DNA of 64,000 nucleotides from an uncultured Oscillospiraceae bacterium. Lineage in GTDB: Bacteria > Bacillota > Clostridia > UMGS1883. The stretch lies in NCBI GenBank assembly GCA_964385605.1, contig CAYLPQ010000001.1:77896-141895 (forward strand). The letters run 5' to 3'. Below the pieces are notes generated by a model. The model was not told where the DNA came from, searched no databases, and saw only the letters and a list, made by a program, of their open reading frames with translations. The translations under genes and the position numbers were made by a program. Position 1 is the stretch's first letter. Every line of letters begins with the position of its first letter. Positions 1-63,688 of this stretch are shown in pieces.

Positions 1-3000
1 CATAACTGCATACGAACCACGTGTCTTTGATTCCATTTTTGTCACATATGACCAGTTATGTAAATCCTGTCCCGGTTCAAAATCGGGATTTATAACGATA
101 CAGTTATGACCTTCCGGTCGTGTGAGGTAAAGATACGGCACTGCTGTCCATCCTCTGCCGTTTTCCTGAATTTTTGAATTATACAAATCCACAAATTGCG
201 TTCTGTAATTATAGTTTTCAACAGGTGTTTCCGTAACCCAACGTTCACCAAGCATATTGAATACATATGTCCCCGTATCAACGTGACCGTGTCCGGGAAG
301 CGGGTCACCACCGTGGAATGAAAGCCATGTAGCATTCTCTGTTCCCCAGGCAGATCTCAAGCTTACAAGCTCTGCCTTCGGGAAATATCCGTCCAAAGAA
401 AGTGATATATTTCCTTTAGAAGTCAAATGCTCCGGCTTTGTGTACCAAAGGTCAGTATTCGTTAAATTCATCGCATCATAGTACGCAAGCTTGATTTCCA
501 TAAGTCCCGGGTCGTTAAGCTTTTCAGAAAGCCATCCGAAATTACCCATATTATTTGTGGGTGCTCCGTTTTCACCATCATGGAAATTATTAACAGTAGT
601 CAGACTTGATGACTGAACTATATAATACGGTGCTTTATTAAAATCGGGACCACGCATCAGACCAAAGTCGTTTTCAAATGCAACATCTAAAGTTGTTATC
701 ATTCTCTGGAAATACTGCATACCATATGTCCAGTAGGTAAGACTTTCTGTATATGCACCGCTGGGATAGCACGTTATAGTATAACGTTCAACACCTTTTA
801 TAGCTTCGGATAAAAGCTTTGCACTATCCTCGGGATATACGTCCATCATTGCTACTGCACCGAGAGCATATGCACCGTGTCCTACAGGGTTCTGGTTCAT
901 CGAAGCATTTACATAATGCTTTGCTCCGGTTGAACCGATTCCGCCGTAAACCTCCAGACCGTTATGAAGACAACGTTCTTTTAACGATTCTTCAATAATT
1001 TTTCTTCTTTCAGGTGTAAAATAGTCATAACACCAGTCATAGCCTATTGATACTGCTGCTATTGTTTCAGAATGGCTGAGGTTTGCAAGCGGTCTCCAGT
1101 CGCCCCAGTTATCAATAGCATATTTTATATCAGCCCATATCTGTTCTGCATACTTACCGTCGCCTGTGAAGAGATATGCCTCACCGCAAGTTGTAATTCT
1201 GCTTAAAAGTGCTCTTGCAGAAGTTACATCATTGCTATAATCCATTTCTATAGGAGCTGAACCGAGTGCCGCGTCTGCTTTTTTAATGTTTGTTGCCAGC
1301 ATTTTTCCGATTTCTTCGTACTGAAAAGCTCGGTTCTTAACTGCTTCAACCTGCTGGGCGCTATGAATCAACCTGGGGTGTTCCCCTTTAGATTTTTCAT
1401 TAAATATCTGAAGCAGTTTTTCTGCAGACGGTCTGTCAAAGGCTGTATAGTTGTAAATATCCCACAAACCATAGTCACCTGACACACCCCAGTCCATTGT
1501 GTTAAGCTCGCCCGTATATGCAATGACCATACCTCTTGTATCATAGTATGTCTTTTTGCCGAAAGCCGCAAATAGCTCATCATATGTAGCATACGTTTTG
1601 CCATTTTCTGCAATGGTTTTTGTAAGCTTTGTTCCATTTGCCGTAACACTGTCATCTTTAATTTCAACCGGTTTTGAATACATCTTTCCAACAGCTTCAA
1701 CATCGATATAGCAAATACCGTCTTTTTCGATAAATAAACTATCACCGGAGGCTACTATTTCGCCTCCAAAATAAAGACGTTTACTTACAGTGTTCAAAAC
1801 CTCTGTTGCATTTAAGAGTGACACATTTGCCCAGTTTGCCCTTATCATACTCTTTTTCTCAAAGGAGTCATGACTCATTGGCTTCGGCTCTCTTCCCGAA
1901 TATATTGCAAACTGGTCAAAGCAAATATCTGCGCCACTATTTGGAATCTGCACCATTGCAGGATTACCAAAATCTTTATTTGCATAGGCAAGATTTTCCT
2001 TTACAAGCTTATAGTCAACAAAAACATCAAAGGTCTTGCTCGCAGCATCCAGCACAAAGGCAAGATTAGTCCATCTGTCCTTATGAACACGACCAACATT
2101 TGTACTGTCTGAAACTATATTATAGTTTGAAATGCTTGTTTTAAGACTCATAGAATGTGCTCTGCCGGTATCTTCAATATTAATAGATACACCGCCCTGT
2201 GATAAATCTACAGCCTTAATATTAAACTGAACAATTATGAAGCGCTTATCAGCTGCTGTTTCACGCGTATAGTTATCAGACATAGGAGATACTAAGTCCA
2301 AACGGTTATTTTTGTTATCATCTATCCATTCAAGATATTTATTACCGTTTTCTTCCTGCTTCACAAGAGTAGTTGCCTGACTTCCCGTCTGAATTCTTGG
2401 CAGAAGATTAAAGAAGGGATCAGTCGTCATTTCGTCAAAGTCACGAATGTAATACACTGATTCACTGACTGAACCATCACCTACATCAAGCTGAATTGCG
2501 CTTTCATTGTACTGCTTTTTGGGAAGTGTTGAAGTATCCTTCAATTTATCTCCACCATAAACATATACATTATCAAGTGTCACATCGATTGAAGTACCTT
2601 CCTCAGGATATAGCGCAAGCTGAACTGTTGTTATATCTTTGACAGGTGATTTCAGATAATACTTATCGCACACGCATACACCATTCTTGTAAAAGGAATA
2701 GACACCAGCTTTAGAGTTATAGATAATATCTATTTTCTGTTTGAAGCCTGTAAATCCGCCTATTGTATACCCTTCAGGATTTGAAAACCCTTTATCACCC
2801 TGAATATTCAAAATTTTAACTGAACTGTTTGAGCCATTTATAAAGGAAAGATCCCCTGTTACACTTCCGCCCGAAACCGAAATTTCCACCGAAAACACAA
2901 ATTTTTCAGGCAACGTCATTCCCGCATATTTTACCTTTATAAATCCATCCTCATTTGCACTCATTCGAAGAAGCTTGTTTTTTCCTTCTGTTTCTTCGAC

Positions 3001-3165
3001 GTATGCTACCTGTGAAGTAAATTCACCCACGGTAGGCAGGGAATTTGTTACTGCATCCTCATATGTTTCCGCAAGAAACACATCAACATTTTCGGCTAAA
3101 GTAAGCATCGGGCAAATACTAAACAGCATAAGGCATACTAAAAGCAAAGAAGTTACTTTCTTCAT
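1..3165 (-). CDS. secreted heparinase II/III-like (polysaccharide-lyase-like) protein, N-terminal ~1055 aa; C-terminus runs off the window start
   Basis: The minus-strand frame is open from the ATG at 3163-3165 (upstream GGGGGAA..GAGG RBS) to position 1 with no stop. It is missing from the ORF track because its stop lies outside the window. The N-terminus MKKVTSLLLVCLMLFSICPMLTLA is a signal peptide. The motifs LPGHGHVDTGTY (coded ~271-300) and RPEGHNCIVINPD (coded ~81-117) fit the Hepar_II_III domain. They align with PGHGHCDTGTF and RPEGHNCLVINPD in ORF 6769..9963, so the two are paralogs. Confidence 0.6.
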   Translation of the reverse strand, partial: MKKVTSLLLVCLMLFSICPMLTLAENVDVFLAETYEDAVTNSLPTVGEFTSQVAYVEETEGKNKLLRMSANEDGFIKVKYAGMTLPEKFVFSVEISVSGGSVTGDLSFINGSNSSVKILNIQGDKGFSNPEGYTIGGFTGFKQKIDIIYNSKAGVYSFYKNGVCVCDKYYLKSPVKDITTVQLALYPEEGTSIDVTLDNVYVYGGDKLKDTSTLPKKQYNESAIQLDVGDGSVSESVYYIRDFDEMTTDPFFNLLPRIQTGSQATTLVKQEENGNKYLEWIDDNKNNRLDLVSPMSDNYTRETAADKRFIIVQFNIKAVDLSQGGVSINIEDTGRAHSMSLKTSISNYNIVSDSTNVGRVHKDRWTNLAFVLDAASKTFDVFVDYKLVKENLAYANKDFGNPAMVQIPNSGADICFDQFAIYSGREPKPMSHDSFEKKSMIRANWANVSLLNATEVLNTVSKRLYFGGEIVASGDSLFIEKDGICYIDVEAVGKMYSKPVEIKDDSVTANGTKLTKTIAENGKTYATYDELFAAFGKKTYYDTRGMVIAYTGELNTMDWGVSGDYGLWDIYNYTAFDRPSAEKLLQIFNEKSKGEHPRLIHSAQQVEAVKNRAFQYEEIGKMLATNIKKADAALGSAPIEMDYSNDVTSARALLSRITTCGEAYLFTGDGKYAEQIWADIKYAIDNWGDWRPLANLSHSETIAAVSIGYDWCYDYFTPERRKIIEESLKERCLHNGLEVYGGIGSTGAKHYVNASMNQNPVGHGAYALGAVAMMDVYPEDSAKLLSEAIKGVERYTITCYPSGAYTESLTYWTYGMQYFQRMITTLDVAFENDFGLMRGPDFNKAPYYIVQSSSLTTVNNFHDGENGAPTNNMGNFGWLSEKLNDPGLMEIKLAYYDAMNLTNTDLWYTKPEHLTSKGNISLSLDGYFPKAELVSLRSAWGTENATWLSFHGGDPLPGHGHVDTGTYVFNMLGERWVTETPVENYNYRTQFVDLYNSKIQENGRGWTAVPYLYLTRPEGHNCIVINPDFEPGQDLHNWSYVTKMESKTRGSYAVM

Positions 3166-3184
3166 CTGCCTCATTCCCCCATTC

Positions 3185-4744
3185 TTATTTACCCAGATAT
3201 CTGTCATATGCCTGCTGCTCAATCTTAATATATTCATCAGCTCCGAGTGAATTCATTTCACTTATGAAAAGCTCATAGCTCAAATCAATATCTGTGTTTC
3301 CGAGTACCCATTTCTGCATCATTTCGCTAAGATGAGTTTCTACCTGTCCTTTATACTTGCTTACAAGTTCCTGCTCTTCTATTGTGTAGACTAACTGTAC
3401 CTTATCTTCAGGAAGGTAATCATTGTCAAGGTACATCTGCATACCTTCTTTTGCAAGGGGGTGTGCAAGGTCCATCTCAAACTGTGCAAGATTCATAACA
3501 CCCCAGTTCATCGCTGTACGATACTGGTTACGCAAGTTCATTGGTGCGGGGTCGGTTGATGCCAGGAATTCCTCTGTGAATTTAGGCTCGCCGTCAACCA
3601 TATTGTATGTAATACCTTCAACGCCGTAGTTAGCTGCAATCTTACCTTCTCTTGACCACCAGTAGTCAAAGTACTTAATTGCTTCAACTGTGTGCTTACA
3701 GTTTGCCGTAATAGCCCAACCTTCGCTGCTTATCTTATTTCTGTAAGTGTATTCAGCTCTTTCGCCGTTTACATTTTCAGGCGGTGCAAACGGAGCAAAG
3801 CGGAAACCTTCAATGTTAGCACCTAAAGTATCATTAAATGCAGCGGTACTTGTGAACCATTCATGTGTAATACCACCCAGGTTATTGCCGAGGAAATACT
3901 CTCTCTGTGACTTTCTGGTAAATATTTCCGGATCAATCAAGCCTTCTTTATACCATTTAGCTACAGTCTTTATCATTTCTTTAAACTGAGGCTCAAAAGG
4001 ACCGTATGAAACCTTGTCGCCATCATAACGGAATGAAGTATAAGCATCAAAAAGACCGCCGAAGTCATTCATTACACTTATAACATTTGACTTCGCTGTG
4101 AAATAGGGAACTTCATCCTGAATACCGTTTCCATTGGGGTCCTGTGTTTTGATTGCTACCATTGTATTGTAGAATTCTTCAAGATTATTAGGAGCTTCCA
4201 ATCCTAACTTATCAAGCCAGTCTGCTCTTATAAACCAGCCGTTTGCAGTCTGAAGCTCATTAACGAAGGGAATCCAGTAAATATTACCATCGGGAGCTGT
4301 TACATAACTTTCTACATCAGGATTCTCATCAAAATACTTCTTAATATTAGGAGCATGCTCTTCAATCAAATCATTAAGCGGAATAAGAGCACCTGACATA
4401 CCATACTCAATAAATGCATCGCGCTTATATGTATATATAATATCTGTAAGCTTTTTTGAAACTACAGCAAGCGCAAGTGCCTGGTCAAAATCTGTATTAT
4501 TTTCGCCCAGTTCAAATTTAAGATTTACATTTGTTCTGTCAAAAGCTTCTGTAAAGATGTTTTCCTCCTGCTTGGGTCCTCTGTACAGGATAGAAAGCTC
4601 TATCGGCTCATCTGTTATCTTATGTGTTAAGCTTCTTTCTGCGTTATCTGGCAAATTTGCTGTTTTTTTGTCGCCGGAGCATCCGGTAAGCAGCAGCATA
4701 AGTGCCAGAATTAACACAATTCCTCTTTTCAAATTTTTTCTCAT
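3185..4744 (-). CDS. lplA: extracellular solute-binding lipoprotein of a carbohydrate ABC transporter (large LplA/YtcQ-type SBP, 519 aa)
   Basis: The N-terminus MRKNLKRGIVLILALMLLLTGCSG is a lipoprotein signal peptide with an LTGC lipobox. At about 520 aa it matches family-1 SBPs of the LplA type. It sits immediately downstream of two LplB/LplC-type permease genes. The symbol is given by analogy to B. subtilis lplABC and is not based on a sequence search. Confidence 0.75.
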   Translation of the reverse strand: MRKNLKRGIVLILALMLLLTGCSGDKKTANLPDNAERSLTHKITDEPIELSILYRGPKQEENIFTEAFDRTNVNLKFELGENNTDFDQALALAVVSKKLTDIIYTYKRDAFIEYGMSGALIPLNDLIEEHAPNIKKYFDENPDVESYVTAPDGNIYWIPFVNELQTANGWFIRADWLDKLGLEAPNNLEEFYNTMVAIKTQDPNGNGIQDEVPYFTAKSNVISVMNDFGGLFDAYTSFRYDGDKVSYGPFEPQFKEMIKTVAKWYKEGLIDPEIFTRKSQREYFLGNNLGGITHEWFTSTAAFNDTLGANIEGFRFAPFAPPENVNGERAEYTYRNKISSEGWAITANCKHTVEAIKYFDYWWSREGKIAANYGVEGITYNMVDGEPKFTEEFLASTDPAPMNLRNQYRTAMNWGVMNLAQFEMDLAHPLAKEGMQMYLDNDYLPEDKVQLVYTIEEQELVSKYKGQVETHLSEMMQKWVLGNTDIDLSYELFISEMNSLGADEYIKIEQQAYDRYLGK

Positions 4745-4792
4745 AAAAAACTCCTCCTTATAATTATTGGTTTTATATATTTAACTTTACAA

Positions 4793-5674
4793 TTAACCTT
4801 TTACTGCACCGAGCATTATACCGTCCTTAAAATACTTCTGAATGAAAGGATAAATCAAAAGCATCGGTACAATTGATACCACAATTGTCGAATACACCAG
4901 CATATCTGAAGAATACTCAATAATTGTATCTGATTGTCCCTGTGGACCTGCAACTGTATTGGCACCAAATGTTGTGTCAATAATTATTTTCTTCAACACA
5001 ACCTGCAAGGGCTGTAAGTCATCCTGCCTTAACAGTATCATCGGCCATATGTAGCTGTTCCAGCAACCAATCAAAGACATAAGTGCAATAGTAGCAATAC
5101 ATGGCTTTGAAAGCGGAATGTATATACGGGTTAATACCTGCCAACTGTTTGCACCATCTAAAAATGCTGACTCTTCCATAGAATCAGGGATTGACTGAAA
5201 GTAAGTTCTCGTCAGGAGAACAAAGTAAGCCGGAACAGAAGATATTATAAGAGCCAGTCTTGTATCTAAAAGTCCCAAATCTACATAGTTCAAATATGCA
5301 GGAATCAATCCACCACCAAACCAAAGAGGTATTGAAACCAAAATATTAAACAGTTTTCTTCCTCTGAAACGTGGCTTTGAGAGAGGATATGAACCCAGGA
5401 TTACAAAGCTAACTGTAAACAATGTTCCAAAAAAAGCAATGAAAATTGAGTTACCGTAACCGGTCCAGATCATCTTTTCCTTCAAAACTTCTCTGTAAGC
5501 GCCAAGATTTAATCCCTTGGGCAGCAATATAACCTCACCGCGCATAACTGCATCCACATCACTCAACGATGCTGACAATACATAGACGAGAGGATACAGA
5601 CAGGCTAAAGAGAACAATAACAGTATGGTTCCGTTTATAAAATAAAATATTTTTTCACCTTTTGTTGCTTTCAT
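4793..5674 (-). CDS. lplC: carbohydrate ABC transporter permease (LplC/YtcP-like, ~293 aa)
   Basis: The protein is multi-pass hydrophobic with a binding-protein-dependent inner-membrane component layout. The track start MVGGEN lacks an RBS. The internal ATG (MKATKGEK) at 5672-5674 is preceded by GGGGGTGAG and avoids overlap with the upstream gene. Confidence 0.75.
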   Translation of the reverse strand: MKATKGEKIFYFINGTILLLFSLACLYPLVYVLSASLSDVDAVMRGEVILLPKGLNLGAYREVLKEKMIWTGYGNSIFIAFFGTLFTVSFVILGSYPLSKPRFRGRKLFNILVSIPLWFGGGLIPAYLNYVDLGLLDTRLALIISSVPAYFVLLTRTYFQSIPDSMEESAFLDGANSWQVLTRIYIPLSKPCIATIALMSLIGCWNSYIWPMILLRQDDLQPLQVVLKKIIIDTTFGANTVAGPQGQSDTIIEYSSDMLVYSTIVVSIVPMLLIYPFIQKYFKDGIMLGAVKG

Positions 5675-5685
5675 ATTCTCACCCC

Positions 5686-6642
5686 CTACCAAAGAGAAGT
5701 TTCTGTTACTCGCTTACTGATAATATTCGTTGCAAGAACAAAAACAAGTGCTACAAGTGAATTAAACAAGCCTACGGCTGTTGCAAAGTCATACTTACCT
5801 TCAGACATACCTAAACGGTACATATATGTAGATATAACGTCTGCAGTCTCGTACGTAACAGGCTGATATAACAAAATAATTTTTTCGTAACCGACAGAAA
5901 ACATACCGCCGACACTCAAAATAAGTTTTATTACTATTGTGGGCAATATACCCGGAAGAGTTATGTGAATTATCTGCCTGAACTTATTACCGCCATCAAT
6001 TACACAGGCTTCGTAAAGCGACGGGTCAATTCCCGACAGAGCTGAAAGATATATAATCGAGCTGTATCCGCAAGTTGTCCATATTCCGGTGGTAATATAT
6101 ATACTTCTGAACCATTCAGGCTTTGTCATGAAATATATGCGTTCTCCGCCCAAGGCTTCAATTAAATTATTGATTACTCCGCTGGGTGCAAGTAAATTTA
6201 CTGTAATACCACAGATAACAACCATAGATATAAAGTGAGGCAAGAAGGTTGCAGTCTGGAAAAAGCTCTTTAACTTTTTCGTTCTGACCTCATTGAGCAA
6301 TATTGCCAGAAGAATAGGAGCAGGGAAAGAAAATATCAAATTATAAATACCCAGTAAAAAAGTATTTTTCAATGTGCGTCCGAAATATGCTCCTGAAACA
6401 AATGTCTTGAAATGCTCAAGACCAACCCATTCACTGCCCCATATACCCTGATATGCATTGAAATCTTTAAAGGCAATGATAATACCATACATTGGTTTAT
6501 AGGTAAAAATCAGCAAGTGTAGTAAGAATGGAATAAACATTATGTACAAGGATAAGTCTTTCTTCACATCTGCCACAAAACGTCCCCTTTTAAACCCTGA
6601 TGAAGGGTGTACTTTTCTTTTAATTTTGCTAATCAAGTTCAA
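5686..6642 (-). CDS. lplB: carbohydrate ABC transporter permease (LplB-like, 318 aa, with the N-terminal extension typical of LplB)
   Basis: This is a polytopic membrane protein of MalF/LplB-like size and layout. It is the first gene downstream of a strong promoter. Its start appears to be TTG (TTG AAC TTG ATT = MNLI) following AAGGTTGG. Confidence 0.7.
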   Translation of the reverse strand: MNLISKIKRKVHPSSGFKRGRFVADVKKDLSLYIMFIPFLLHLLIFTYKPMYGIIIAFKDFNAYQGIWGSEWVGLEHFKTFVSGAYFGRTLKNTFLLGIYNLIFSFPAPILLAILLNEVRTKKLKSFFQTATFLPHFISMVVICGITVNLLAPSGVINNLIEALGGERIYFMTKPEWFRSIYITTGIWTTCGYSSIIYLSALSGIDPSLYEACVIDGGNKFRQIIHITLPGILPTIVIKLILSVGGMFSVGYEKIILLYQPVTYETADVISTYMYRLGMSEGKYDFATAVGLFNSLVALVFVLATNIISKRVTETSLW

Positions 6643-6697
6643 ACACCAACCTTAAATTAAAATTGTAAATTATAATTGCACTCCACTTTGTAACAAA

Positions 6698-6727
6698 ATT
6701 ATATGCTTGCCAGTATATAAATGTCAA
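6698..6727 (-). promoter_or_regulatory. sigma-A-type promoter for the lplB-lplC-lplA transporter operon
   Basis: The minus strand reads TTGACA, an 18-nt spacer, then TATAAT. It lies about 55 nt upstream of the lplB-like start and directly downstream of the stop of ORF 6769..9963. Confidence 0.7.
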
Positions 6728-6768
6728 TTTACATAAATTGCACTATATTCGCTTTTTTTGCATTAAAG

Positions 6769-9700
6769 CTATTCTTTTGTATTTATCGGCAATGCTTCTG
6801 TGAGAGGAGCAAGTTTTTCTTCAGAATCCCATACATATAACTTCGCAGAAAATTCATTTCCTTCAGGTATCTCACAAAACGCACTCATTCCATCATAAGT
6901 GTTATCTTTCGCGGGATGAATGCTGTAAAGTTCTTTCCCTTTATATACAACAATAAAAGGAAACAGATTTTTTGTCCTGACTTCCGCGCGAATATTTTTA
7001 TCGGTTTTATAAATTATCTCTGTAAAGTCATCGCACTTCCATTCATCCAATTGTACATTTTCAGAAGGCATAATATCATCTCCCATAGGGGAAAGCTTTG
7101 CCTGGATATACATATTTCCGTTTTCAGAACAATCAGCTACAACAGCAAGCTTTTTATATTTGCTATTGTCAGATTGACCTGCTGTTTGCGGAGATGTAGC
7201 AAGCGGTTCAGCTGACATTACTGTTAGTTCAAAGTTTGGGGCATCAGTAAGCAATTCAAATTTAATACTCTTTCCGCTTTTTGTTAAAATAGCAGTTTTA
7301 GCATCTTCCTGAATTTCAATCACCGTATCTGCCATTGTATGCATAAACCAATAGACCTTACCGGCACTTTTAATACCTTCTATTTCATCACGTATAATCA
7401 TACTGTTGCGATTATCATCAGTTTTAAAGCCGCGACGCACACTCGATGCATAATTGACGTATGCGTCAGTCATATTAAGGATACTGTAGCCCCCATATTC
7501 ATTTGTTTCAAATTTTTCAATCGGTGAAAATGCCGATGTATTATGTCCCGGCGACTCGTCAGGGTTTATAACCAAACAATTATGCCCCTCCGGTCTTGTT
7601 CTATATGTATCGAGCAGGCTACCTGCAAACGAATAGCTCTCCGATGGAAGATCTACCGCAAAACGAACACCATCATATTCATATACAAAGGTCCCCGTAT
7701 CGCAATGTCCGTGTCCGGGATAGGCATAACCTCCGTGATAAGATAAGAACATTCCGTTTGAGTCAAGCCATTCTTCTCGGAAAGAGCCGACTGCATCTCT
7801 TTGTATTGCAGCATCTTTTGGCAACTTTATATCATCCAGAACCTTTGCGTAAGAGGCCGGAAAATTAATGAGTGTTGTTATTCCATAATAAACCTTATGA
7901 TGCCAATCATATGTAAGTTTCCAGTCTGCCCATAAGGGCTCATTATACAAAGCTGCCAAGCCATAAAAGCTACCCATACTATATACCGAAAGATTCTGTT
8001 CAGAATCATGATAATTATTATTTTGTTGTATGCTTGCCGCATACATTATGTATTCGGGAGATTTTTCAAGTCCGGGCGAGTGAATCATACCGAAATCTTT
8101 TCCATAGGAAATTTTAATGCTCGAAACAGCCGGTACCCAATATTGCATCGAATATGTCCAATACGTCGTACCTTCAAGCCATGCGCCATCGGGATAGAAG
8201 CTATTCTGAAATTTTTCAACTGAACGAATTGCTTTTTCCAAAACAAAGCCCGCTTCCTCAGGATATTTATCCATGATTGCAAGGGCACATAAAATATATC
8301 CCCCGTTGATAACTGCATTCTGATTACTGTTTTTCGAATTTATCCACCACGAACTGTTACCGCCGATTTGTCCTCCGTAATTTTTCACAGCATAAACAAG
8401 GGCTTTTTTATAAAGAGCCTCCTCCATAGCCTTTTTCTGGGTATCATTCCACTCTTCATAAAGCCAGTCGTATGCATATGCCACAGCTGTTGCCATCTCT
8501 GCATTATCCAAGCCACTGTTAGGCTGCCAATGAGGAAAATCATCATCGTTTATAACTGCTTCAACATTTTCCCATATTCTATCCTTGACATTTTCTTTAA
8601 TTTCGTATTCATTTGCATCCGAAGCACTACTATCTTCCATTAAATGATACCATAGCGCAAGGTTTTTCACTCTTGAAAGCAATGTTCTTGCTTTCATCAT
8701 AACATTTTGTTTATTTGATGCATCGTTCAGCAACTTACCGGAATATTCATCATCTATACGCGTCTTACCTATTTCAAAATACCATTTAGCATATTCATAA
8801 GCATTTATCTCTTGTTTTATTTCGTCAATACGACCTTCCGGAATTGACAATCTGGGATGGTCCTTTTTTATATTATCAATCAAATATTCTGACGATGGCC
8901 TTTCATACATCAATTCATTGTGTAAAGTCCATTTCAAGCTGTCCGAAAGCTCGGCAACTCCCCCATCGTCACTCCAATAAATAAATCCGCGGTCGTCGTA
9001 TAAGGCCTTTTTGCCAAACTCTGCCAATGCAGCATCATACAATAAATACCCACCTATATTGATTTCAGTATTAAAAAGTTCCTCCAGTTTTTTACATGAA
9101 ATCAAAATTCTGCCATTTGAATACTTTACAATTTCAGCATCGTTTCCCTTTTTTCCGTTGATAATATAATCTCCGTAAATTGATATTGCAGACACACCTT
9201 CAGACTTATTATTGTCTGCATTAACTATTGACTTATACTCAAGATCATAGACAGTGTTATCAAAAACAGGCTCTCCGCTATAAAACACAAAATTATCAAA
9301 GCAATACGTGCCAGCAGTATATGATTTTTCTGAATGAAATCTTATACGCCATAAATCTATTATTACCGTTTCACGTGTTTCAATTTGTATATCGTTTGCA
9401 TAAACCGTAATATACGGTTTATCAACACTAAAATCGCAAACTACTCTTATTGTTGTCCACTCGTTTGCATTCAGTATGTTTTCTATACCGCAAACCTTGT
9501 CGTTAACAAGCCACACACTATGCGTATTGGTTCCGGTGCTGTCAGTCAGCATAAGTCCAATCTTTGTTGCAGTTTCTTTAGGCATCACATCAAACTGAAC
9601 AACCATTTTTTTTTCATTTATGGCCTCTGACAATATTTTTTCTATATTTGAGTTTCCCTCACCTGTCCCATACTCATAGTCAGGAGAATACTTTTCGAAA

Positions 9701-9963
9701 AATATATAGCGGTTACCACTTGTATCAACTTCTGTTCCTATATTGTTTCCGTTTTCACGCACTGTAATATTGTCAAATGGAGAATATTTGCCATAATAGC
9801 TATCATCAAAATTTTTTACAAAGTACAGCTCGCCACTCTCTTTGGTCACCTTTTCAGCAAAAGAAACTACTGGACATACAGACAGCAAAAACAAGCACAA
9901 CGTCCATAAGGCAACTACTTTTTTCATAAGCCTAGTTCTCCTTATCATTTTCTTTTTTATCAT
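6769..9963 (-). CDS. secreted heparinase II/III-like (polysaccharide-lyase-like) protein, 1064 aa
   Basis: A signal peptide lies within MIKKKMIRRTRLMKKVVALWTLCLFLLSVCPVVSFA. The C-terminal region has GHGHCDTGTF and RPEGHNCLVINPD, the hallmarks of the Hepar_II_III fold seen in PL12/PL15/PL17/PL21-like enzymes. It is a paralog of the partial ORF 1..3165. Confidence 0.6.
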   Translation of the reverse strand: MIKKKMIRRTRLMKKVVALWTLCLFLLSVCPVVSFAEKVTKESGELYFVKNFDDSYYGKYSPFDNITVRENGNNIGTEVDTSGNRYIFFEKYSPDYEYGTGEGNSNIEKILSEAINEKKMVVQFDVMPKETATKIGLMLTDSTGTNTHSVWLVNDKVCGIENILNANEWTTIRVVCDFSVDKPYITVYANDIQIETRETVIIDLWRIRFHSEKSYTAGTYCFDNFVFYSGEPVFDNTVYDLEYKSIVNADNNKSEGVSAISIYGDYIINGKKGNDAEIVKYSNGRILISCKKLEELFNTEINIGGYLLYDAALAEFGKKALYDDRGFIYWSDDGGVAELSDSLKWTLHNELMYERPSSEYLIDNIKKDHPRLSIPEGRIDEIKQEINAYEYAKWYFEIGKTRIDDEYSGKLLNDASNKQNVMMKARTLLSRVKNLALWYHLMEDSSASDANEYEIKENVKDRIWENVEAVINDDDFPHWQPNSGLDNAEMATAVAYAYDWLYEEWNDTQKKAMEEALYKKALVYAVKNYGGQIGGNSSWWINSKNSNQNAVINGGYILCALAIMDKYPEEAGFVLEKAIRSVEKFQNSFYPDGAWLEGTTYWTYSMQYWVPAVSSIKISYGKDFGMIHSPGLEKSPEYIMYAASIQQNNNYHDSEQNLSVYSMGSFYGLAALYNEPLWADWKLTYDWHHKVYYGITTLINFPASYAKVLDDIKLPKDAAIQRDAVGSFREEWLDSNGMFLSYHGGYAYPGHGHCDTGTFVYEYDGVRFAVDLPSESYSFAGSLLDTYRTRPEGHNCLVINPDESPGHNTSAFSPIEKFETNEYGGYSILNMTDAYVNYASSVRRGFKTDDNRNSMIIRDEIEGIKSAGKVYWFMHTMADTVIEIQEDAKTAILTKSGKSIKFELLTDAPNFELTVMSAEPLATSPQTAGQSDNSKYKKLAVVADCSENGNMYIQAKLSPMGDDIMPSENVQLDEWKCDDFTEIIYKTDKNIRAEVRTKNLFPFIVVYKGKELYSIHPAKDNTYDGMSAFCEIPEGNEFSAKLYVWDSEEKLAPLTEALPINTKE

Positions 9964-12121
9964 CGACTATGCATTTAGACCGGTACTCATTTGGCGAAAT
10001 ACCTGTTTTTTTCTTGAATACACGCACAAAACTTGTAGTGTTTAAATATCCTACACTCTCGCCAATTTCCTTGATTTTAATCATACTTTTATCTTTTAAA
10101 AGACTTTTTGCTTTTTTAATCCTGAGCTCCAGCACATAATCGATAAAAGTTTGTCCTGTCATTTTTTTATAGAGTTTGCTTACATACCCCACCGAAATAT
10201 TAAAACGTGCTGCTATATTTACAACAGACATTTCTTCCGTATTTGAAAAATTATCCATAACATAGTCGTTTATTTCATTGAAAAGGACATTTTGATTGTC
10301 AGTGTTCTTTGCAACTATAGCATTAAACACATTGTTGTAAAATGCATATAAAAAAACCTTAAGCTTTTCCTGATCGCGGCTGAAAGCAATTTTTTCTCGT
10401 ATATTTTCTCCATTTGCAAGTTCCGCCTCTGTTAAGCCAAAAGTCTCTACAATACGTTTTGCCGTCATCATAAGAGCAAATTTAAACTCAACGATTTCTT
10501 CAGAAGATATTTCTCTTTTGTCCGCATTGACATCCAATACATGAGAAAGAAGATTATAAAAACCTTCCTGATTACCTTCTCGAACAAATGAAACAAGACT
10601 GTCTTCAACTTCTATAGGATAATAATATCTGTCATATTTCTTTTTCTCGCCGCCATAATGATATACTGTATTCTCTATTGAGGCCATATGAATATCGCTG
10701 ATCTCGATTATTTCAGTATATAATCCGTACATGTCAGAGAGTTCAGCAATTCTATGGTCAAGCATTATCGCTTTAATCCTTATATTTAATTTTTGTTCAG
10801 CAGAAGTCAAATTTTTAAGGATAATCGTTTCTGCTTCATTATTTTTACTTTTCGGATACAAAAACACAGTCTTACCCAAGCTGAGTTCAAAGCTTTCTGC
10901 TGCAAGCTCATCTGCAATTTTTTCTAACAAGTCTTCGTAGGGTTTATTATTAATCACCGCTATATCAGAAGAGTCAAACATTAACACACCACATACGGCA
11001 CAATAAAAATCATCAGTTATCCTTAAGGAAAATAATTCTTTTTTATTTTCAATCTCACTTTTGCCAATTTTCCCCATGAAAATATCCTTTAAAAAGTTAC
11101 CCTTAAGCATTTTTTCATGTTCTTCCTGGTGTTTTTTTAATTCGTTATTCTTCTCTATCAAGCTCTCAAATGTGGATTCCATTACTCCAAATTCATCATA
11201 TTCGTCACTCTGCTCAAAGTATTTTTTCAAAAAAGTTCCAAATGGCTTATATATCTTTATTGCTATATATTTTGACAACCACAAAGTCAGCACAAAAAAG
11301 CATAAAAGAATTATTGCAAACTGCACAGAAAAATAAAAAGGAACTTTAAACTCGTCAGTTGCAATACCGTACTTCCATTCAGGAATAACAATTGAGCTTT
11401 TCCATATAGCTTGCTTTTTGTCGCTTGCTGAAAGTGAATCATATTTAAACAGATTACTCTCTTTTTCGTTTATATAAAATCCATTGAGCGATTCATTTTC
11501 CATATTTTCCGTCATTACAGTTTTATTTAACACGACCAGAAAACAGAGATTATTTTCTACGTAAACAGACTTTTTAACAAAAAATATTATGTAAGAGCTT
11601 TCATCCATACCTGTATATTTATCAGAAAGCCTGATAAAGGTATTTTCATCAAATCCTGCTAATGAGTCATGTTCGTAGGGGATATTCCCAAGTTTATCAT
11701 TAATATCATCGAGATGTTCAATTCCACTTTCCGAAATAAAACAATCATATTCCGGCTTGTACATAATCACCTCTATGCCCGAAATGCCTTTATGAGGCAT
11801 TGTATCGCTTATATATTTATATAATTGAATCTTATCATATTGGTTCACACTTTCTTTTCCGGCAAACTTTCTTACAGATGATTCCAAAGGTAGCACATCA
11901 ACATATTCAAACGCACTACGCAGTTCCTGATCTAATATATTTGCATGATTGTTTAATGTTATATATTCATTTTCTGTCTGTTTCTGCCGGTGAAGCTTTA
12001 TTTGTTGATATTCAAACAAGGATACAATTATCAAGCTAAAGCAAATCATTACAGTAAATATTAAAAGCCGAACATTTCTAAAATATTTATTTTTATTGTG
12101 CAAAATCATCCCTCGCTTCAA
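9932..12121 (-). CDS. membrane-anchored AraC-family transcriptional regulator (729 aa; N-terminal TM, large sensor region, C-terminal HTH_AraC)
   Basis: The C-terminus VSKLYKKMTGQTFIDYVLELRIKKAKSLLKDKSMIKIKEIGESVGYLNTTSFVRVFKKKTGISPNEYR is a double HTH AraC signature. Hydrophobic segments lie near the N-terminus (LLIFTVMICFSLIIVSLF) and near residue 270 (AIILLCFFVLTLWL). No receiver domain is present. Confidence 0.8.
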   Translation of the reverse strand: MKRGMILHNKNKYFRNVRLLIFTVMICFSLIIVSLFEYQQIKLHRQKQTENEYITLNNHANILDQELRSAFEYVDVLPLESSVRKFAGKESVNQYDKIQLYKYISDTMPHKGISGIEVIMYKPEYDCFISESGIEHLDDINDKLGNIPYEHDSLAGFDENTFIRLSDKYTGMDESSYIIFFVKKSVYVENNLCFLVVLNKTVMTENMENESLNGFYINEKESNLFKYDSLSASDKKQAIWKSSIVIPEWKYGIATDEFKVPFYFSVQFAIILLCFFVLTLWLSKYIAIKIYKPFGTFLKKYFEQSDEYDEFGVMESTFESLIEKNNELKKHQEEHEKMLKGNFLKDIFMGKIGKSEIENKKELFSLRITDDFYCAVCGVLMFDSSDIAVINNKPYEDLLEKIADELAAESFELSLGKTVFLYPKSKNNEAETIILKNLTSAEQKLNIRIKAIMLDHRIAELSDMYGLYTEIIEISDIHMASIENTVYHYGGEKKKYDRYYYPIEVEDSLVSFVREGNQEGFYNLLSHVLDVNADKREISSEEIVEFKFALMMTAKRIVETFGLTEAELANGENIREKIAFSRDQEKLKVFLYAFYNNVFNAIVAKNTDNQNVLFNEINDYVMDNFSNTEEMSVVNIAARFNISVGYVSKLYKKMTGQTFIDYVLELRIKKAKSLLKDKSMIKIKEIGESVGYLNTTSFVRVFKKKTGISPNEYRSKCIVDDKKENDKEN

Positions 12122-12244: not shown

Positions 12245-14326
12245 TCACATAACGTTCTTTCTGTAACAGCTGAGCTCATATTCAATTACATAGTCAATGT
12301 GCTTAATTTTCCAACGTATGCGCTCCTCATCCCCCATATATTCCATAGACGGCTCCCAACCCAGGCGGGAGTCTTTTCTTACAAACTCAATTGCTTTTTC
12401 TGCGTTTTCCTTTTCGCGCAAAAGGAGTTTCTCCATTTGGTCAGCAAGCATTAAAATACTTTCAGCATTATTCTCGGATTTAATCTTTGCGGAGAACTTA
12501 TACCAGTATTTTGCATTTATTCCTGTAGTAACATAACAGCAAATGTATTCTCCCATATTCACAAGATAACACAGTTCTTCGTTTTTCTCCGAAATACCCT
12601 GAAGGATATCCGTTCCTTGCCGCATTAACTCGTACATTTTTTCCAGAGATTTTATCTCTGTATCAACCCGCATAAAGGGAAGCATTCCTCTTCCTGTTGG
12701 AAGTCCGTTTGTAGGATGATAGTCAGCCGGATACATTGTAAACATAATACGATTTCCGAAATGTGCATAACTCTCACCTTTTGGCTTCATTTCGCGAATT
12801 AAGCAGAAAGGATATGCCGGGCCGATTCTGAATGCTCCGTACTGGTCTGCATCGCTGGGTATATAATGAGTGATTGCATCACTCCATAATTTAAGTGCCT
12901 GACAGATTCTTTCAGCATTTTCCTCTCCGTATCGGGCAGAAATAACATCATTCAAGCATTTTTCACTATCGGTGTTTTCTTTAATGAAGCACTGTTTAGC
13001 AAGGTCCCCGATAAATGAAGGCCAAAAACCAAAATGATGAGATTCCATAACACCGCACAAACCCCATTTTTCGTTAGCCTCACGAAGACCCTTGTATCTT
13101 TTCATCCACTGATAAGGCATCGGCTCATAGGGCACAACACCCATATCCCATGTAGTACCACCGGTATTTGCCATTGTATACATACGGATACCACGTTTTT
13201 TTGCTGCTTCAGCCTCCGACTTAAAGTATTCGCCAGGGCCATGCAACGACAAGGTATAATCTGCTGTAAATTCAGTAATATCGTCTATTTTATAGCTCTC
13301 AAACATTTCAAAGGTTGCCATAAGGGTAATATCTGTCGGAAGGGAGTTTATAAGCTTCAGACGGTTTTCCTTATCAACATATCCCCAGTTATAGGTCCAG
13401 AAAACAATATCTGCATCCTTTTTCTGATTTCTTACCGCCTTTTTCACACATTCGAGCCACTGGGGATAATCATAACACGGCCACCAACCGGCAGACGGTT
13501 TTCCTGTGGGGAATCCATCCTTGTCAACCTTTTCCCTTGTTGGAGTAACATTAGGATCTTTGCTTGGAAATCCCACCGACTCCCCGACAAGTATAACACC
13601 TTTAAGGGAAGGACAATTTTTAAACAGTGTCCCGTAAAGGTTATCATAAAATTCCTGTGCATCTTCTTCCTCGGGATGCTTTTCGCTTTTTAAATAGCTG
13701 TAGGCATATACATCTATTCCGTAACGCGACGCACGATAAATGAGCTCGTTAAAATCAACGAACCCCGTGCTCGTCATATTAACACCTTTGACAAAAATCA
13801 GTATTGCATCCATTCCTGCGTGTGCAATAGATGCAAGATGTTCATTGGGGAAATTGTCTATTCCATAGCCTGAATGCACCATTCTGGGAGAGAACAGGTA
13901 CGTGTGTCTTATTTCCTCTTTTTTAAGAATTGGTGCTTTTTTCACATTCATTCTGTCCTCAAGACAGTAAAAAGCCTGTGCCACTCCTCTGTCATTTTTT
14001 CCGGAAATGGAAATACTGTCACCAATCTTTATTATGTAGTCTTCAGACTGATTTTCGTCAACAGAGCATAAAATGGCATTATCTGAAATTTTCTCATCCG
14101 AAATCATTGCAGATATTTTCATTGAGGTAAAAAGATAGCCTGTAAAATCTTTTGCCCCTGTAATTATAACCTCTGTACAATTTTCAGGCACAATGATATT
14201 TAGTCCGTTCTTCAGTTCAAGCTCGTTCTCGTCAGGAAGAATGTCAAAATTTCTGACATTCTTCCTGTGGATATTTAGTAGCCTTTTCCTAAACTCATAT
14301 TTTTGTTCATTCTTAAGCATATACAC
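12245..14326 (-). CDS. uncharacterised cytoplasmic 693-aa protein, putative glycoside hydrolase or phosphorylase (paralog of 21012..23129)
   Basis: There is no signal peptide. It shares long blocks with ORF 21012..23129: FSPRMVHSGYGID-FP, GMDAIL-F-KG-NMT, GV-LVGESV-FPS-DPN, GWWPC-DYP-WL, DIVFWTYNWG, GLCG-MESHH-GF-PSFI and YGAFRIGPAYPFC. I could not assign a family from memory. Confidence 0.5.
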   Translation of the reverse strand: MYMLKNEQKYEFRKRLLNIHRKNVRNFDILPDENELELKNGLNIIVPENCTEVIITGAKDFTGYLFTSMKISAMISDEKISDNAILCSVDENQSEDYIIKIGDSISISGKNDRGVAQAFYCLEDRMNVKKAPILKKEEIRHTYLFSPRMVHSGYGIDNFPNEHLASIAHAGMDAILIFVKGVNMTSTGFVDFNELIYRASRYGIDVYAYSYLKSEKHPEEEDAQEFYDNLYGTLFKNCPSLKGVILVGESVGFPSKDPNVTPTREKVDKDGFPTGKPSAGWWPCYDYPQWLECVKKAVRNQKKDADIVFWTYNWGYVDKENRLKLINSLPTDITLMATFEMFESYKIDDITEFTADYTLSLHGPGEYFKSEAEAAKKRGIRMYTMANTGGTTWDMGVVPYEPMPYQWMKRYKGLREANEKWGLCGVMESHHFGFWPSFIGDLAKQCFIKENTDSEKCLNDVISARYGEENAERICQALKLWSDAITHYIPSDADQYGAFRIGPAYPFCLIREMKPKGESYAHFGNRIMFTMYPADYHPTNGLPTGRGMLPFMRVDTEIKSLEKMYELMRQGTDILQGISEKNEELCYLVNMGEYICCYVTTGINAKYWYKFSAKIKSENNAESILMLADQMEKLLLREKENAEKAIEFVRKDSRLGWEPSMEYMGDEERIRWKIKHIDYVIEYELSCYRKNVM

Positions 14327-18737: not shown

Positions 18738-20129
18738 CTATATACTATACATTGACAAATATTTCTTTGTGTTCTGTATCATTTCGTCAAATAACTTCCG
18801 TGCACTTTCCACATCAAGAGTTACAAGGGGATCGTTTACAAATGCATTGAATACACCCTCAATATCCCTGTTAGTAATTGCGGCATGAACTGCTTCCTGC
18901 TCTGCACATATTCTGGAAACAAGAGGATATATACTTTCAGGAATCCCGCCTGACATTACAGGCATAACACTGTCTGAACGGAAAACGGCATTTGTTTCAA
19001 CAACTGCTCCCATGGGAAGATTGGGAATCTGCCCTGTGTTTGGAATGTTTACATTTGTAACAAGGTCGCACAGTCCCACAAGAGCCCTTATTTGATTTAT
19101 ACCTTCCTCACCCGTTTTGTCAATTTTTACAGTTTCTTCACCGCTTCTTAATCTCTCGCTTCGTGCAATACGTTCCTTAAGCTCTTCTTTTCTGCTGTCA
19201 ACAGTTGTAAGAGCAAACCCCCATTTTTCTACAGTTTCCGGGTCTTTAAGGTACCATTTCCCTTCACAGAATTCCGCAAGATGTCTGTCGCCTGCGGCGG
19301 CAATGTAACCGTAGCGTTTAAAAAGGTCTATCTTTACCTTTTCCATACATTTAAGGTTTTTATTTGCCCAATTATCGTGAAGAGTTTCAGCATAGCCACA
19401 GTCAGAATATTTTTCGGCAAACTTACTGTACACCGGAAATAAATCCATATTCTTGTATTTTGCGGAAGTAATCCAGGTAAAGTGATTCACCGCAACGGGT
19501 GTAACCTTTATATCTTCTCTTTTTACATCCTTGATTCCGCAGATTTCTTCAAGCGCGGTCATAAGAACTTTCTGTGTGCCGAAAACCTCGTGACAGCATC
19601 CGAAAGCTTTGATTTCAGGGAAGGTTTTATAAAGAGTTTTTACACACAGTGTCATTGGGTTTGTGTAACTTATAACCCATGCATTCGGACAATATTCTTT
19701 TATATAATTTGCTATTTCTTCATACATAGGAACTGTACGCATCGCACGCACTATGCCTCCCGGGCCTGATGTATCTCCGACAGATTGATAAATTCCGTAT
19801 TTTTCAGGAGTATGTACATCAGAATACATTTCATCAAATGTTCCGGGCAAAATTGAAATTATAACAAAATCTGCATCAGTCATAGCCTCTTTTGCGGTTT
19901 TTACAGCATGGTAATTCCATACAGTATTTGCACCTTCGGCATTGTTAAATTTATTTCCTATAATTTCATTTGCAATTGCTGCATCATAATCGATATCATA
20001 AAGAAACACATCGCCGCTGATATCACTGCAGCTAGCAAGGTCACTCATAAGCCCCCAAGCCCAGCCACGGCTTCCGCCGCCGACATAAGCGATTTTTATA
20101 TCTCGCACACAATCTTTTTCAAATTTCAT
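18738..20129 (-). CDS. lplD: family 4 glycoside hydrolase (NAD+/Mn2+-dependent; LplD alpha-galacturonidase/alpha-glucosidase-like)
   Basis: The N-terminal IKIAYVGGGSRGWAWGLMSDLA Rossmann motif and a length of 463 aa are typical of GH4. The gene lies in the same region as the lplABC-like transporter. The symbol is by analogy only. Confidence 0.7.
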   Translation of the reverse strand: MKFEKDCVRDIKIAYVGGGSRGWAWGLMSDLASCSDISGDVFLYDIDYDAAIANEIIGNKFNNAEGANTVWNYHAVKTAKEAMTDADFVIISILPGTFDEMYSDVHTPEKYGIYQSVGDTSGPGGIVRAMRTVPMYEEIANYIKEYCPNAWVISYTNPMTLCVKTLYKTFPEIKAFGCCHEVFGTQKVLMTALEEICGIKDVKREDIKVTPVAVNHFTWITSAKYKNMDLFPVYSKFAEKYSDCGYAETLHDNWANKNLKCMEKVKIDLFKRYGYIAAAGDRHLAEFCEGKWYLKDPETVEKWGFALTTVDSRKEELKERIARSERLRSGEETVKIDKTGEEGINQIRALVGLCDLVTNVNIPNTGQIPNLPMGAVVETNAVFRSDSVMPVMSGGIPESIYPLVSRICAEQEAVHAAITNRDIEGVFNAFVNDPLVTLDVESARKLFDEMIQNTKKYLSMYSI

Positions 20130-20143
20130 GATAATCCACTCTC

Positions 20144-21025
20144 CTATTTAATTTCCCAGCCATTTTCACTATTTAAAAGACGCATTATAACAGGACGTTC
20201 ATCCTGCACAGGCTCGTTGGGCTTGTGCATAATAAAATACTCATTACCGCAAATATCCTCAAATATCATTCCGTGTCCGCCATTTTTATCCGAAACAGGA
20301 TTTTGAAGAACTTGCCAGTTTCCGTCTATATCCCCATTGTCGCTTTTTGCGATAAGCTCTGCATATCCGCTCCGGGTAAAGCTGGACCACAGGCAATATA
20401 ACTCACCATCTGTATTTCGTTTTAAAAACGGTCCGTCAGTAACAAAAGCAATCTCGTTTTCTCTTACGGTTTTTACACCTTTAAAATCAGATGCTTTCCA
20501 CAGTGTTTTGGGGACAGAAACGACTTCAGTCAAATCTGCCGAAAGCTGCACTTCACAGATTTCTCCGTCACCTGTCTGCAACCATTCATGACAAAAAACA
20601 ATGTGAGGGGCACCCTTTTTGTCAATATACAGAGTCCCATCAAGACATTCCCAATCGCGAGGAGTTACCGGGCAGTCTGATACCGGCACAAAATTGCCGT
20701 CAGGTGTATCAGAAACAAGAATATGCGTACCACGGCACTCTTTTTCTGACTTAAACGTGGCGAACATATAAAATTTTCCGTTGTAAAAATACACTTCCGG
20801 CGCCCAGAAATCCATGGTTCCCCAGAAACCATCTTGTTTCTCAAAAACGGATTTTGGTTCGTTCCAGTTTTTCAGGTCCTTGCTTACATAAACATCAAAC
20901 CCGGTTTGTTCACCCCATGGTTTTTCTTTTGTCGGCATGCCTACTCTTGAACCGTACATATAATATTTATTTTCCCACAACAAAATAAAAGGATCTCTTA
21001 TATTTATTTTTTCAAGTTTCATCAT
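20144..21025 (-). CDS. GH43-family glycoside hydrolase (beta-xylosidase/arabinofuranosidase-like five-bladed propeller)
   Basis: The N-terminal IRDPFILLWENKYYMYGS has the catalytic Asp motif. Internal WAPE and FYMFAT blocks are also present. The protein is cytoplasmic. Confidence 0.7.
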   Translation of the reverse strand: MMKLEKINIRDPFILLWENKYYMYGSRVGMPTKEKPWGEQTGFDVYVSKDLKNWNEPKSVFEKQDGFWGTMDFWAPEVYFYNGKFYMFATFKSEKECRGTHILVSDTPDGNFVPVSDCPVTPRDWECLDGTLYIDKKGAPHIVFCHEWLQTGDGEICEVQLSADLTEVVSVPKTLWKASDFKGVKTVRENEIAFVTDGPFLKRNTDGELYCLWSSFTRSGYAELIAKSDNGDIDGNWQVLQNPVSDKNGGHGMIFEDICGNEYFIMHKPNEPVQDERPVIMRLLNSENGWEIK

Positions 21026-25279: not shown

Positions 25280-25352
25280 AGACAAGAATACAACACATTT
25301 TTCTTTATTTCCTTAAATTTGTTGTTCAAATAGAATAAAACAAGAAAATATT

Positions 25353-32964: not shown

Positions 32965-32980
32965 ACTTAATCCTCCTGAC

Positions 32981-54390: not shown

Positions 54391-54397
54391 ACCTCCT

Positions 54398-56875: not shown

Positions 56876-56909
56876 AAGTGTCCTCCTAATAATATGTTGA
56901 AAATTGCTG

Positions 56910-61764: not shown

Positions 61765-61776
61765 AGTTTTTCTCCT

Positions 61777-62589: not shown

Positions 62590-62591
62590 AG

Positions 62592-63614: not shown

Positions 63615-63688
63615 TTTTTGCCCTTCTTCTTTTTGCATTTGTGCTACATTATACTTTATACAAGAAACAAAGTCAAGAGAAAAAAGCA

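Follow-up and report, generated by a model that had tools for sequence, protein, structure and literature searches.

Two genes at the left end of a 64-kb stretch of DNA from an uncultured Oscillospiraceae bacterium (contig CAYLPQ010000001.1; the whole stretch is called the window hereafter) encode large paralogous proteins, A and B, which are related to the polysaccharide lyases (PL) of family PL35 and flank the genes of an LplABC-type importer. Both are likely to be Sec-secreted, multi-modular polysaccharide lyases, divergent relatives of PL35, that feed the import and trimming of uronic oligosaccharides. Family PL35 dates from 2019; it was characterised in 2024–2025 on only a few enzymes, which came from Bacteroidota and Victivallis (phylum Lentisphaerota). 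The characterised enzymes all act on glycosaminoglycans (GAGs), and one of them also acts on poly-mannuronate.

A and B were confirmed as minus-strand open reading frames (ORFs; Table 1). The N-terminus of A is MKKVTSLLLVCLMLFSICPMLTLA; its full-length orthologues (P0012–P0020, 72–90% identity) have 1,430–1,444 residues. Because most orthologues of B begin at its Met13, a residue kept in at least 90% of the aligned B-type sequences, the real start of B is probably at nucleotide (nt) 9927, which would give a protein of 1,052 residues. The two proteins share 30% identity across 675 residues (blastp, E = 1e-83), far beyond chance, and are thus paralogues. A signal peptide was read by eye at the N-terminus of each. 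An earlier note on this DNA had described two paralogous secreted lyase candidates, lacking S-layer homology (SLH) domains and bracketing an LplABC-style importer. This description holds: a substrate-binding protein (SBP) and two permeases are encoded between A and B, and the domain scan of B, the visible part of A and P0012, a full-length orthologue of A, detected no SLH domain. B is 29–36% identical to many A-type lineages. As its own neighbour A is no closer than the others, the duplication is old, and a recent origin of B by duplication of A was rejected.

Family assignment and active site

When compared with the sequences of the Protein Data Bank (PDB), B was closest to three PL35 structures, 9o3q (E = 2.6e-40), 8khw (3.7e-39) and 8khv (4.4e-38), and A was likewise closest to PL35 (8khv, 1.9e-38). 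The next families were PL33 (4e-5), PL15 (3a0o, 1.5e-3) and PL21 (2fuq, 1e-3), and no PL12 or PL17 sequence was matched by A or B at E up to 1. A structure of B was modelled with AlphaFold (AF2) from a 22-sequence alignment, with a predicted local distance difference test (pLDDT) of 81.9 and a predicted template-modelling score (pTM) of 0.80. The same PL35 structures took the first three ranks in a Foldseek search with this model (8khv, 8khw and 9o3q; E = 2e-28 to 1e-26; target template-modelling (TM) scores of 0.82, 0.82 and 0.78). Later matches were to PL15, dermatan sulfate epimerase 1, PL39, PL33, PL21, PL17 and PL12, with target TM scores of 0.51–0.69, and of 0.51–0.62 for PL12, PL15, PL17 and PL21. 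The modelled fold follows the PL35 layout, with an (α/α)6 toroid followed by an antiparallel β-sheet domain. In Pfam, B scored 38.5 bits with Hepar_II_III_C, over the cut-off of 24; NCBIfam gave no match for A or B. A relative of canonical size, P0148 (635 residues), aligned with 266 bits to B and with about 220 bits to each of the three PL35 structures, and by its sequence appears to bridge B and PL35. The heparinase II/III fold class put forward in the earlier note thus agrees with both the fold search and Pfam. The narrower attribution to a PL12/15/17/21-like family has to be replaced: judged from the sequence matches (1e-38 to 1e-40) and the model, the predicted catalytic modules of A and B are PL35-like.

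The characterised enzymes compared here are GAGase II from Spirosoma fluviale (8KHV), GAGase VII from Bacteroides intestinalis (8KHW) and a Bacteroides chondroitinase (9O3Q). A and B share with them the fold, the Asn/Tyr/His triad, the ligands of the Mn2+ site and Arg94 (numbering of GAGase II). They differ in host, a Clostridia-type Firmicute instead of the Bacteroidota of the GAGases, and in size: the GAGases have 624–648 residues in two core modules (DUF4962 and Hepar_II_III), whereas A (about 1,440 residues) and B (about 1,050) carry extra modules. In the model, with secondary structure assigned by DSSP, B consists of the signal peptide, a concanavalin A-like β-sandwich (residues ~45–229), a small α/β domain (~257–331), the toroid (~341–700), the antiparallel β-sheet domain (~717–960) and a C-terminal β-sandwich (~990–1060). 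The first β-sandwich gave weak fold matches to carbohydrate-binding modules of sialidases, to agarase modules and to calreticulin. A has one N-terminal module more, as residues 41–979 of B align to 239–1208 of the A-type protein P0018. Its visible part comprises the signal peptide, two β-sandwich modules, a small Cu_amine_oxidN1-like domain, the PL35-like toroid and the start of the β-sheet domain. In A-type relatives, the place of the small α/β domain is taken by a clear Cu_amine_oxidN1 domain, and A orthologues end in an F5/8 type C module (F5_F8_type_C at 1327–1437 of P0012).

In GAGase II, mutagenesis showed that Asn192, Tyr246, His401 and the Mn2+ ligands His403, Asp405, Asp421 and His457 are essential (PMC12088678). 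These residues were mapped onto A and B via HMMER alignments; the PDB numbering equals that of the paper minus 22, and this offset puts all seven on the expected letters. Each has a counterpart in both proteins (Table 1). The Asp421 ligand corresponds to Asp771 in B and, by a conservative change, to Glu979 in A, and the equivalent of GAGase II Asn191 is Asn545 in B and a Met in A. The GHGH-DTG and RPEGHNC blocks reported earlier in both ORFs were located at exact coordinates; according to the alignments, the former would hold the catalytic His with two metal ligands and the latter the fourth ligand. An alignment of 22 A-type, B-type and distant sequences shows no variation at Asn547, Tyr601, His751 and Asp755 of B, and a conservation of at least 90% at His753 and His794. 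On this ground a degenerate or purely binding protein was rejected at the level of sequence, including the degenerate catalytic Tyr/His that the earlier note had raised as a refuting case.

The conservation does not extend to all residues that bind the substrate in the GAGases. A has Asn, Asp and Ala where GAGase II has Arg87, Arg88 and His136. In B, His136 corresponds to Ser483, and Arg87 and Arg88 correspond to Asn and Val in a transitive alignment through A. Of the four GAG-binding residues Arg87, Arg88, Arg94 and His136, only Arg94 is kept (Arg426 in B and Arg651 in A). These four residues describe GAGase specificity and do not define membership of PL35.

Relatives, gene order and importer

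A word-indexed search of 5.8 billion proteins returned only 10 orthologues of B and nine of A, all from metagenome assemblies. In an exhaustive HMMER search, 4,600 relatives were found among 1.84 billion cluster representatives at E ≤ 1e-3, and 1,747 at E ≤ 1e-30. The best 150 matches have a median length of 1,393 residues when P0002 and P0007, the only two B-type clusters at 50% identity, are left out, and 83 of the 146 counted reach at least 1,300 residues. Because the best matches are mostly about 1,400 residues long, the A-type architecture marks a large uncharacterised group. This PL35-like branch comprises hundreds of clusters at 50% identity, with proteins of typically about 1,400 residues that have the module order β-sandwich modules, Cu_amine_oxidN1, toroid, β-sheet and F5/8 type C. 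No record was returned for B by an exact search of the assembly index. In the GTDB representative genomes, a contig search with the single sequence B found no relative, and an alignment-based contig search found relatives at 33% identity at most, mostly in Clostridia metagenome-assembled genomes (MAGs) from rumen, horse, goat and human gut, with some in Verrucomicrobia and Lentisphaerae. The matches suggest that the closest relatives come from ruminant gastrointestinal metagenomes. A 955-residue homologue is encoded by Ruminococcaceae bacterium AB4001 (L006), a cultured relative.

The gene order is conserved in two metagenomic loci at 77–90% identity (L047 and L050): the gene of a 693-residue protein, an AraC-type regulator gene, B, two permease genes, the SBP gene, A and the gene of a Big_7 protein. 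The SBP is 92% identical in both. At 46% identity (L048 and L049), B directly adjoins A without the transporter. For three further pairs of B and A orthologues, contigs of identical length suggest co-location, and in L051 an A-type gene is preceded by an LplABC-like transporter, without B. In L050, the B orthologue was called as two genes of 751 and 295 residues (3282–6447), next to an A orthologue 90% identical to A; the split may reflect a frameshift, a pseudogene or an error of assembly. In the window itself, B is intact.

The importer follows the LplABC-type CUT1 pattern, with a large lipoprotein SBP and two permeases, and without an ATPase in the operon. No ABC_tran ATPase domain was detected among the 36 window ORFs scanned, and NCBIfam gave no match for the SBP. 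The locus resembles LplABCD of Bacillus subtilis in its SBP lipoprotein of about 520 residues, its permeases of about 318 and 299 residues and its lack of an ATPase gene; a strong orthologue of LplD, a glycoside hydrolase (GH) of family GH4, is encoded 9 kb away. Unlike that system, the importer here has a lyase gene on either side, and the B–A pair of the 46%-identity lineage lacks it. The earlier suggestion that Lpl genes mark the use of pectin or rhamnogalacturonan could not be retained: importers of this type are not diagnostic for pectin, because KEGG labels them as aldouronate transporters and about 20 copies occur in one Clostridium population (PMC7501288).

A perfect consensus σ70-like promoter lies in the 126 nt that separate B from the first permease gene. 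This match to the consensus, in itself no evidence of function, suggests that the transporter and A may be transcribed apart from B, from a possible internal promoter. The gene of an AraC-type regulator lies immediately upstream of B and abuts its start, the same position as in L047 and L050. The transmembrane segments of the regulator were read by eye.

Table 1. Positions of lyases A and B, their predicted active-site motifs and associated features in the window; roles of residues are those predicted from alignment with GAGase II, whose residue numbers are given in parentheses.
Feature	Position (nt)	Strand	Description
Lyase A	1..3165	-	1,055 residues visible; C-terminal part beyond the left window edge
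Motif RPEGHNCIVINPD of A	82..120	-	residues 1016-1028; fourth metal ligand His1020 (His457)
Motif PGHGHVDTG of A	271..297	-	residues 957-965; catalytic His960 (His401), metal ligands His962 (His403) and Asp964 (Asp405)
Motif ESLTYWTY of A	724..747	-	catalytic Tyr811 (Tyr246)
Motif SMNQN of A	889..903	-	neutralising Asn758 (Asn192)
LplA-like lipoprotein SBP	3185..4744	-	519 residues; lipobox LLTGC; SBP_bac_1
ATP-binding cassette (ABC) permease, LplC-like	4793..5692	-	BPD_transp_1
ABC permease, LplB-like	5686..6642	-	318 residues; BPD_transp_1
Consensus σ70-like promoter	6698..6727	-	TTGACA, 18-nt spacer, TATAAT; 12/12 match
Lyase B	6769..9963	-	complete; 1,064 residues as listed
Motif RPEGHNCLVINPD of B	7558..7596	-	residues 790-802; fourth metal ligand His794 (His457)
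Block with Asp771 of B	7645-7662		metal ligand (Asp421)
Motif PGHGHCDTG of B	7693..7719	-	residues 749-757; catalytic His751 (His401), metal ligands His753 (His403) and Asp755 (Asp405)
Motif EGTTYWTY of B	8152..8175	-	catalytic Tyr601 (Tyr246)
Motif NSNQN of B	8317..8331	-	neutralising Asn547 (Asn192)
AraC-type regulator, membrane-anchored	9932..12121	-	729 residues; C-terminal HTH_18 and HTH_AraC
693-residue cytoplasmic protein	12245..14326	-	upstream of the AraC-type regulator in the window, L047 and L050
GH4, LplD-type α-galacturonidase orthologue	18738..20129	-	3fef, E = 5.8e-142; 9 kb from the lyases
705-residue paralogue of the 693-residue protein	21012..23129	-	50% identity
GH105-type unsaturated uronyl hydrolase	23186..25285	-	Glyco_hydro_88, 219.6 bits; 360-residue N-terminal extension
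PIG-L deacetylase	41882-42745		
Second GH105-like gene	58510-60669		

Predicted pathway, substrate and alternatives

The lyases are presumed to catalyse β-elimination at a 4-linked uronic acid. Asn547 of B (Asn758 of A) would neutralise the carboxylate, while His751 and Tyr601 (His960 and Tyr811 of A) would act as general base and acid. The metal site, with His753, Asp755, Asp771 and His794 as putative ligands in B, would steady the loop that bears the catalytic His; in the characterised PL35 enzymes the metal is Mn2+ (GAGase II, PMC12088678). The extra β-sandwich modules, together with the C-terminal F5/8 type C module in A, probably hold the polymer. The lipoprotein SBP would catch the unsaturated oligosaccharides and pass them to the two permeases for import, presumably energised by an ATPase encoded elsewhere. 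In the cytoplasm, the unsaturated uronyl hydrolases of GH105 would then trim the imported products, together with further glycosidases encoded in the locus. The set is probably under the control of the membrane-bound AraC-type protein.

Several genes of the window could serve the trimming. Two proteins with a Glyco_hydro_88 domain have no signal peptide, as read by eye, and are therefore taken to be cytoplasmic. The one encoded at 23186–25285 was compared with PDB sequences, and its closest match was 3k11 (2.7e-39), annotated merely as a putative glycosyl hydrolase, followed by YteR (2.8e-23) and the ulvan unsaturated rhamnoglycuronyl hydrolase 4ce7 of GH105 (1.6e-20). The sole match titled "Family 88" was 5noa, which ranked far lower (1e-16), and a literature search for 3K11 together with GH105 returned nothing. 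Of the initial designation "GH88/105-like", the closest structures thus favour the GH105 side and not the GH88 side. The domain scan of the window also gave a GH43 protein, and no sulfatase was found among the 36 ORFs scanned.

The 693-residue protein had no match in Pfam, NCBIfam or the PDB sequences. It has more than 2,393 homologues in Clostridia-type MAGs, and all source names shown read "hypothetical protein". The AF2 model (pLDDT 90.2) is nearest to a GH138 α-galacturonidase acting on rhamnogalacturonan II and to GH67 α-glucuronidases, then to GH20, GH115 and GH84, at about 10% identity. On the strength of this model, the 693- and 705-residue proteins possibly represent an undescribed glycoside hydrolase family, and the former, probably a uronidase, would act downstream of the lyases.

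As in the earlier note, the substrate cannot be named from sequence, but its class can be narrowed to some extent. The two GH105 genes, the LplD-type GH4, the GH43 and the two GH67/GH138-like proteins, together with the lack of a sulfatase among the scanned ORFs, point to an unsulfated heteropolysaccharide rich in uronic acid instead of a sulfated GAG. A non-GAG polymer of this kind, of plant or microbial origin, is accordingly given a mild preference.

The principal alternative is that A and B are ordinary PL35 GAG lyases that degrade hyaluronan, chondroitin or heparosan-type chains of host or dietary origin in the animal gut. The sole characterised relatives are indeed GAG lyases, the catalytic and Mn residues are conserved, and a PIG-L deacetylase gene is present in the window. 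The F5/8 type C module of the A-type proteins would also fit, as would the GH20, GH109 and Glucosamine_iso genes found beside A-type relatives in L053 and L055, which agree with glycans containing N-acetylhexosamine (HexNAc). Against this, the window has neither a sulfatase nor a clearly GH88-type unsaturated glucuronyl hydrolase, its Glyco_hydro_88 proteins being closest to GH105. The local partners are instead the LplD α-galacturonidase, the GH43 and the GH67/GH138-like proteins, Arg87, Arg88 and His136 of GAGase II are not kept, and members of the family are reported to be more similar to one another than A and B are to the GAGases. This alternative is considered unlikely, and a GAG-type substrate such as chondroitin, hyaluronan or heparosan is doubtful to the same degree.

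It is much less probable that A and B are not lyases, being either uronate C5-epimerases or non-catalytic polysaccharide binders on the same scaffold. Human dermatan sulfate epimerase 1 (6HZN) has the same two-domain fold as B, at 13% identity, and came ninth among the fold matches. The same His and Tyr serve in epimerases, and Pfam now names DUF4962 "DSE-like_N". That enzyme, however, is biosynthetic and eukaryotic, whereas the context of A and B is bacterial and catabolic: both are secreted, lie beside an oligosaccharide importer and share the locus with two GH105 genes, whose enzymes act only on the unsaturated ends made by lyases. A purely binding role is further opposed by the catalytic and metal residues, all of which are invariant or nearly so. 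Least credible of all is that A and B belong to the heparinase II/III or alginate lyase types PL12, PL15, PL17 or PL21: the fold class, the Pfam families Hepar_II_III_C and DUF4962 and the weak matches to 3a0o and 2fuq are shared, but the PL35 structures match about 35 orders of magnitude better by sequence and, with target TM scores of 0.78–0.82, clearly better by fold than these families, PL33 and PL39. The PL15 exo-alginate lyase Atu3025 (3A0O), the exo-heparinase 6LJA and the PL33, PL39, PL17, PL21 and PL12 enzymes use the His/Tyr β-elimination chemistry proposed for A and B, yet their sequence similarity is marginal (E = 4e-5 to 1e-3) and their rmsd (root-mean-square deviation) is 6–13.6 Å.

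A number of observations weigh against the assignment of A and B as PL35-related lyases of a non-GAG polymer. In the DUF4962 and Hepar_II_III profile comparison proposed in the earlier note, B passed, but A stayed below threshold: only DUF4962 was matched, at 24.4 bits for a gathering threshold of 28.7, and the A orthologue P0012 reached 22.8 bits with Hepar_II_III_C for a threshold of 24. In structure-based alignments, the identity is only 22–24% to the characterised PL35 enzymes, for which the published range within the family is 35–45%; the specificity is therefore not transferable. The refuting case of a well-characterised PL family, raised in the earlier note, therefore applies in part: PL35 is the nearest family, yet the identity is low and three of the substrate-binding residues are lost. 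The dermatan sulfate C5-epimerase 6hzn has the same fold and His/Tyr residues as B. Beside the A-type relatives in L053 and L055 lie genes for GH20, GH109, GH95, GH2 and a glucosamine-6-phosphate isomerase-like protein (Glucosamine_iso); with GH20, GH109 and Glucosamine_iso next to a lyase, a host-type glycan containing HexNAc would be a fitting substrate, and the case for a non-GAG polymer is weakened. In 15 Clostridia MAG loci (L003–L016 and L018), 116 ORFs lying no more than 7 kb from distant homologues were scanned with Pfam; no carbohydrate-active enzyme (CAZyme) emerged as a conserved partner, and the scan turned up only SBPs, permeases, SLH proteins and esterases. Finally, a distance of 9–50 kb separates the GH105, GH4 and PIG-L genes from the lyases, and these genes may be part of other modules of the very large locus. 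The GH88/105-like and PIG-L partners invoked earlier do exist, but at 13–50 kb.

With these points taken into account, the assignment of A and B as secreted, divergent PL35-like lyases is still considered likely. A more specific proposal is made tentatively, and is given somewhat less than an even chance. A and B would belong to a large, mostly Clostridial PL35-like branch with a specificity not yet recorded for PL35, directed to a pectic or arabinogalactan-type plant polysaccharide or to a microbial uronic-acid heteropolysaccharide instead of GAG or alginate, and would work with an undescribed family of GH67/GH138-like cytoplasmic glycosidases.

The wider locus and the PL35-like branch

The window is a single co-directional carbohydrate-utilisation (CAZyme) island with duplicated modules. 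All genes of the first 25 kb are on the minus strand, and of the 36 window ORFs scanned, a single one lies on the plus strand. Six pairs of paralogous genes are present, including A/B, the 693/705-residue proteins, the two GH105, the two SLH pairs and two GFO oxidoreductases, as well as three related AraC-type regulators. Many large secreted proteins lack a family assignment, such as those encoded at 34799–37699 (966 residues) and 45126–47996 (956 residues). Searches of these two and of 48019–51714 against PDB sequences gave nothing useful.

In each SLH gene pair (30175–34798 and 51715–56947), the first gene encodes a protein (605 and 849 residues) whose three SLH repeats are C-terminal, and the gene that follows encodes a protein of about 900 residues. 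The latter proteins (929 and 891 residues) have one N-terminal SLH repeat and are 26% identical to each other. At least six MAG loci (L003, L013, L034, L040, L044 and L050) have homologues of the pair beside genes of PL35-like lyases, and the pair may form a cell-surface module for glycan capture or an enzyme module. The minus-strand gene at 48019–51714 encodes a secreted protein of 1,231 residues with DUF7402, F5/8 type C, FG-GAP and dockerin type I domains. The dockerin stands out, as the other surface proteins of the locus use SLH anchors. Weak matches to PL11 and to the propeller of λ-carrageenase make another lyase or hydrolase possible.

Between the lyase operon and the GH4/GH43 genes, the minus-strand segment 14639–18367 encodes a PHP phosphoesterase, a GDPD glycerophosphodiester phosphodiesterase, an α/β hydrolase and an M20 amidohydrolase. 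These genes may point to a substrate with substituents of the phosphodiester, ester or amide type. GFO_IDH_MocA oxidoreductases occur with a xylose isomerase-like TIM barrel protein (AP_endonuc_2) at 60916–63689 and 40848–41885 of the window, and also beside the A-type lyases in L053 and L055. We take this pairing to be reminiscent of oxidative (3-keto) glycoside cleavage pathways.

The nearest uncharacterised relatives of PL35 are far more numerous: they form a multi-modular group in ruminant and gut Clostridia, with loci that look like those for the utilisation of acidic glycans of plants or microbes, and not of GAGs. As their Pfam scores fall below threshold, the A-type proteins are left nearly unannotated by standard pipelines. 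For CAZyme biology the result is incremental and brings no new principle; the branch, however, is large and wholly uncharacterised. Identification of its substrate would widen the range of PL35 specificities and give a function to many of these proteins, and it could tie in a second unannotated family, with over 2,000 homologues, as a new family of glycoside hydrolases.

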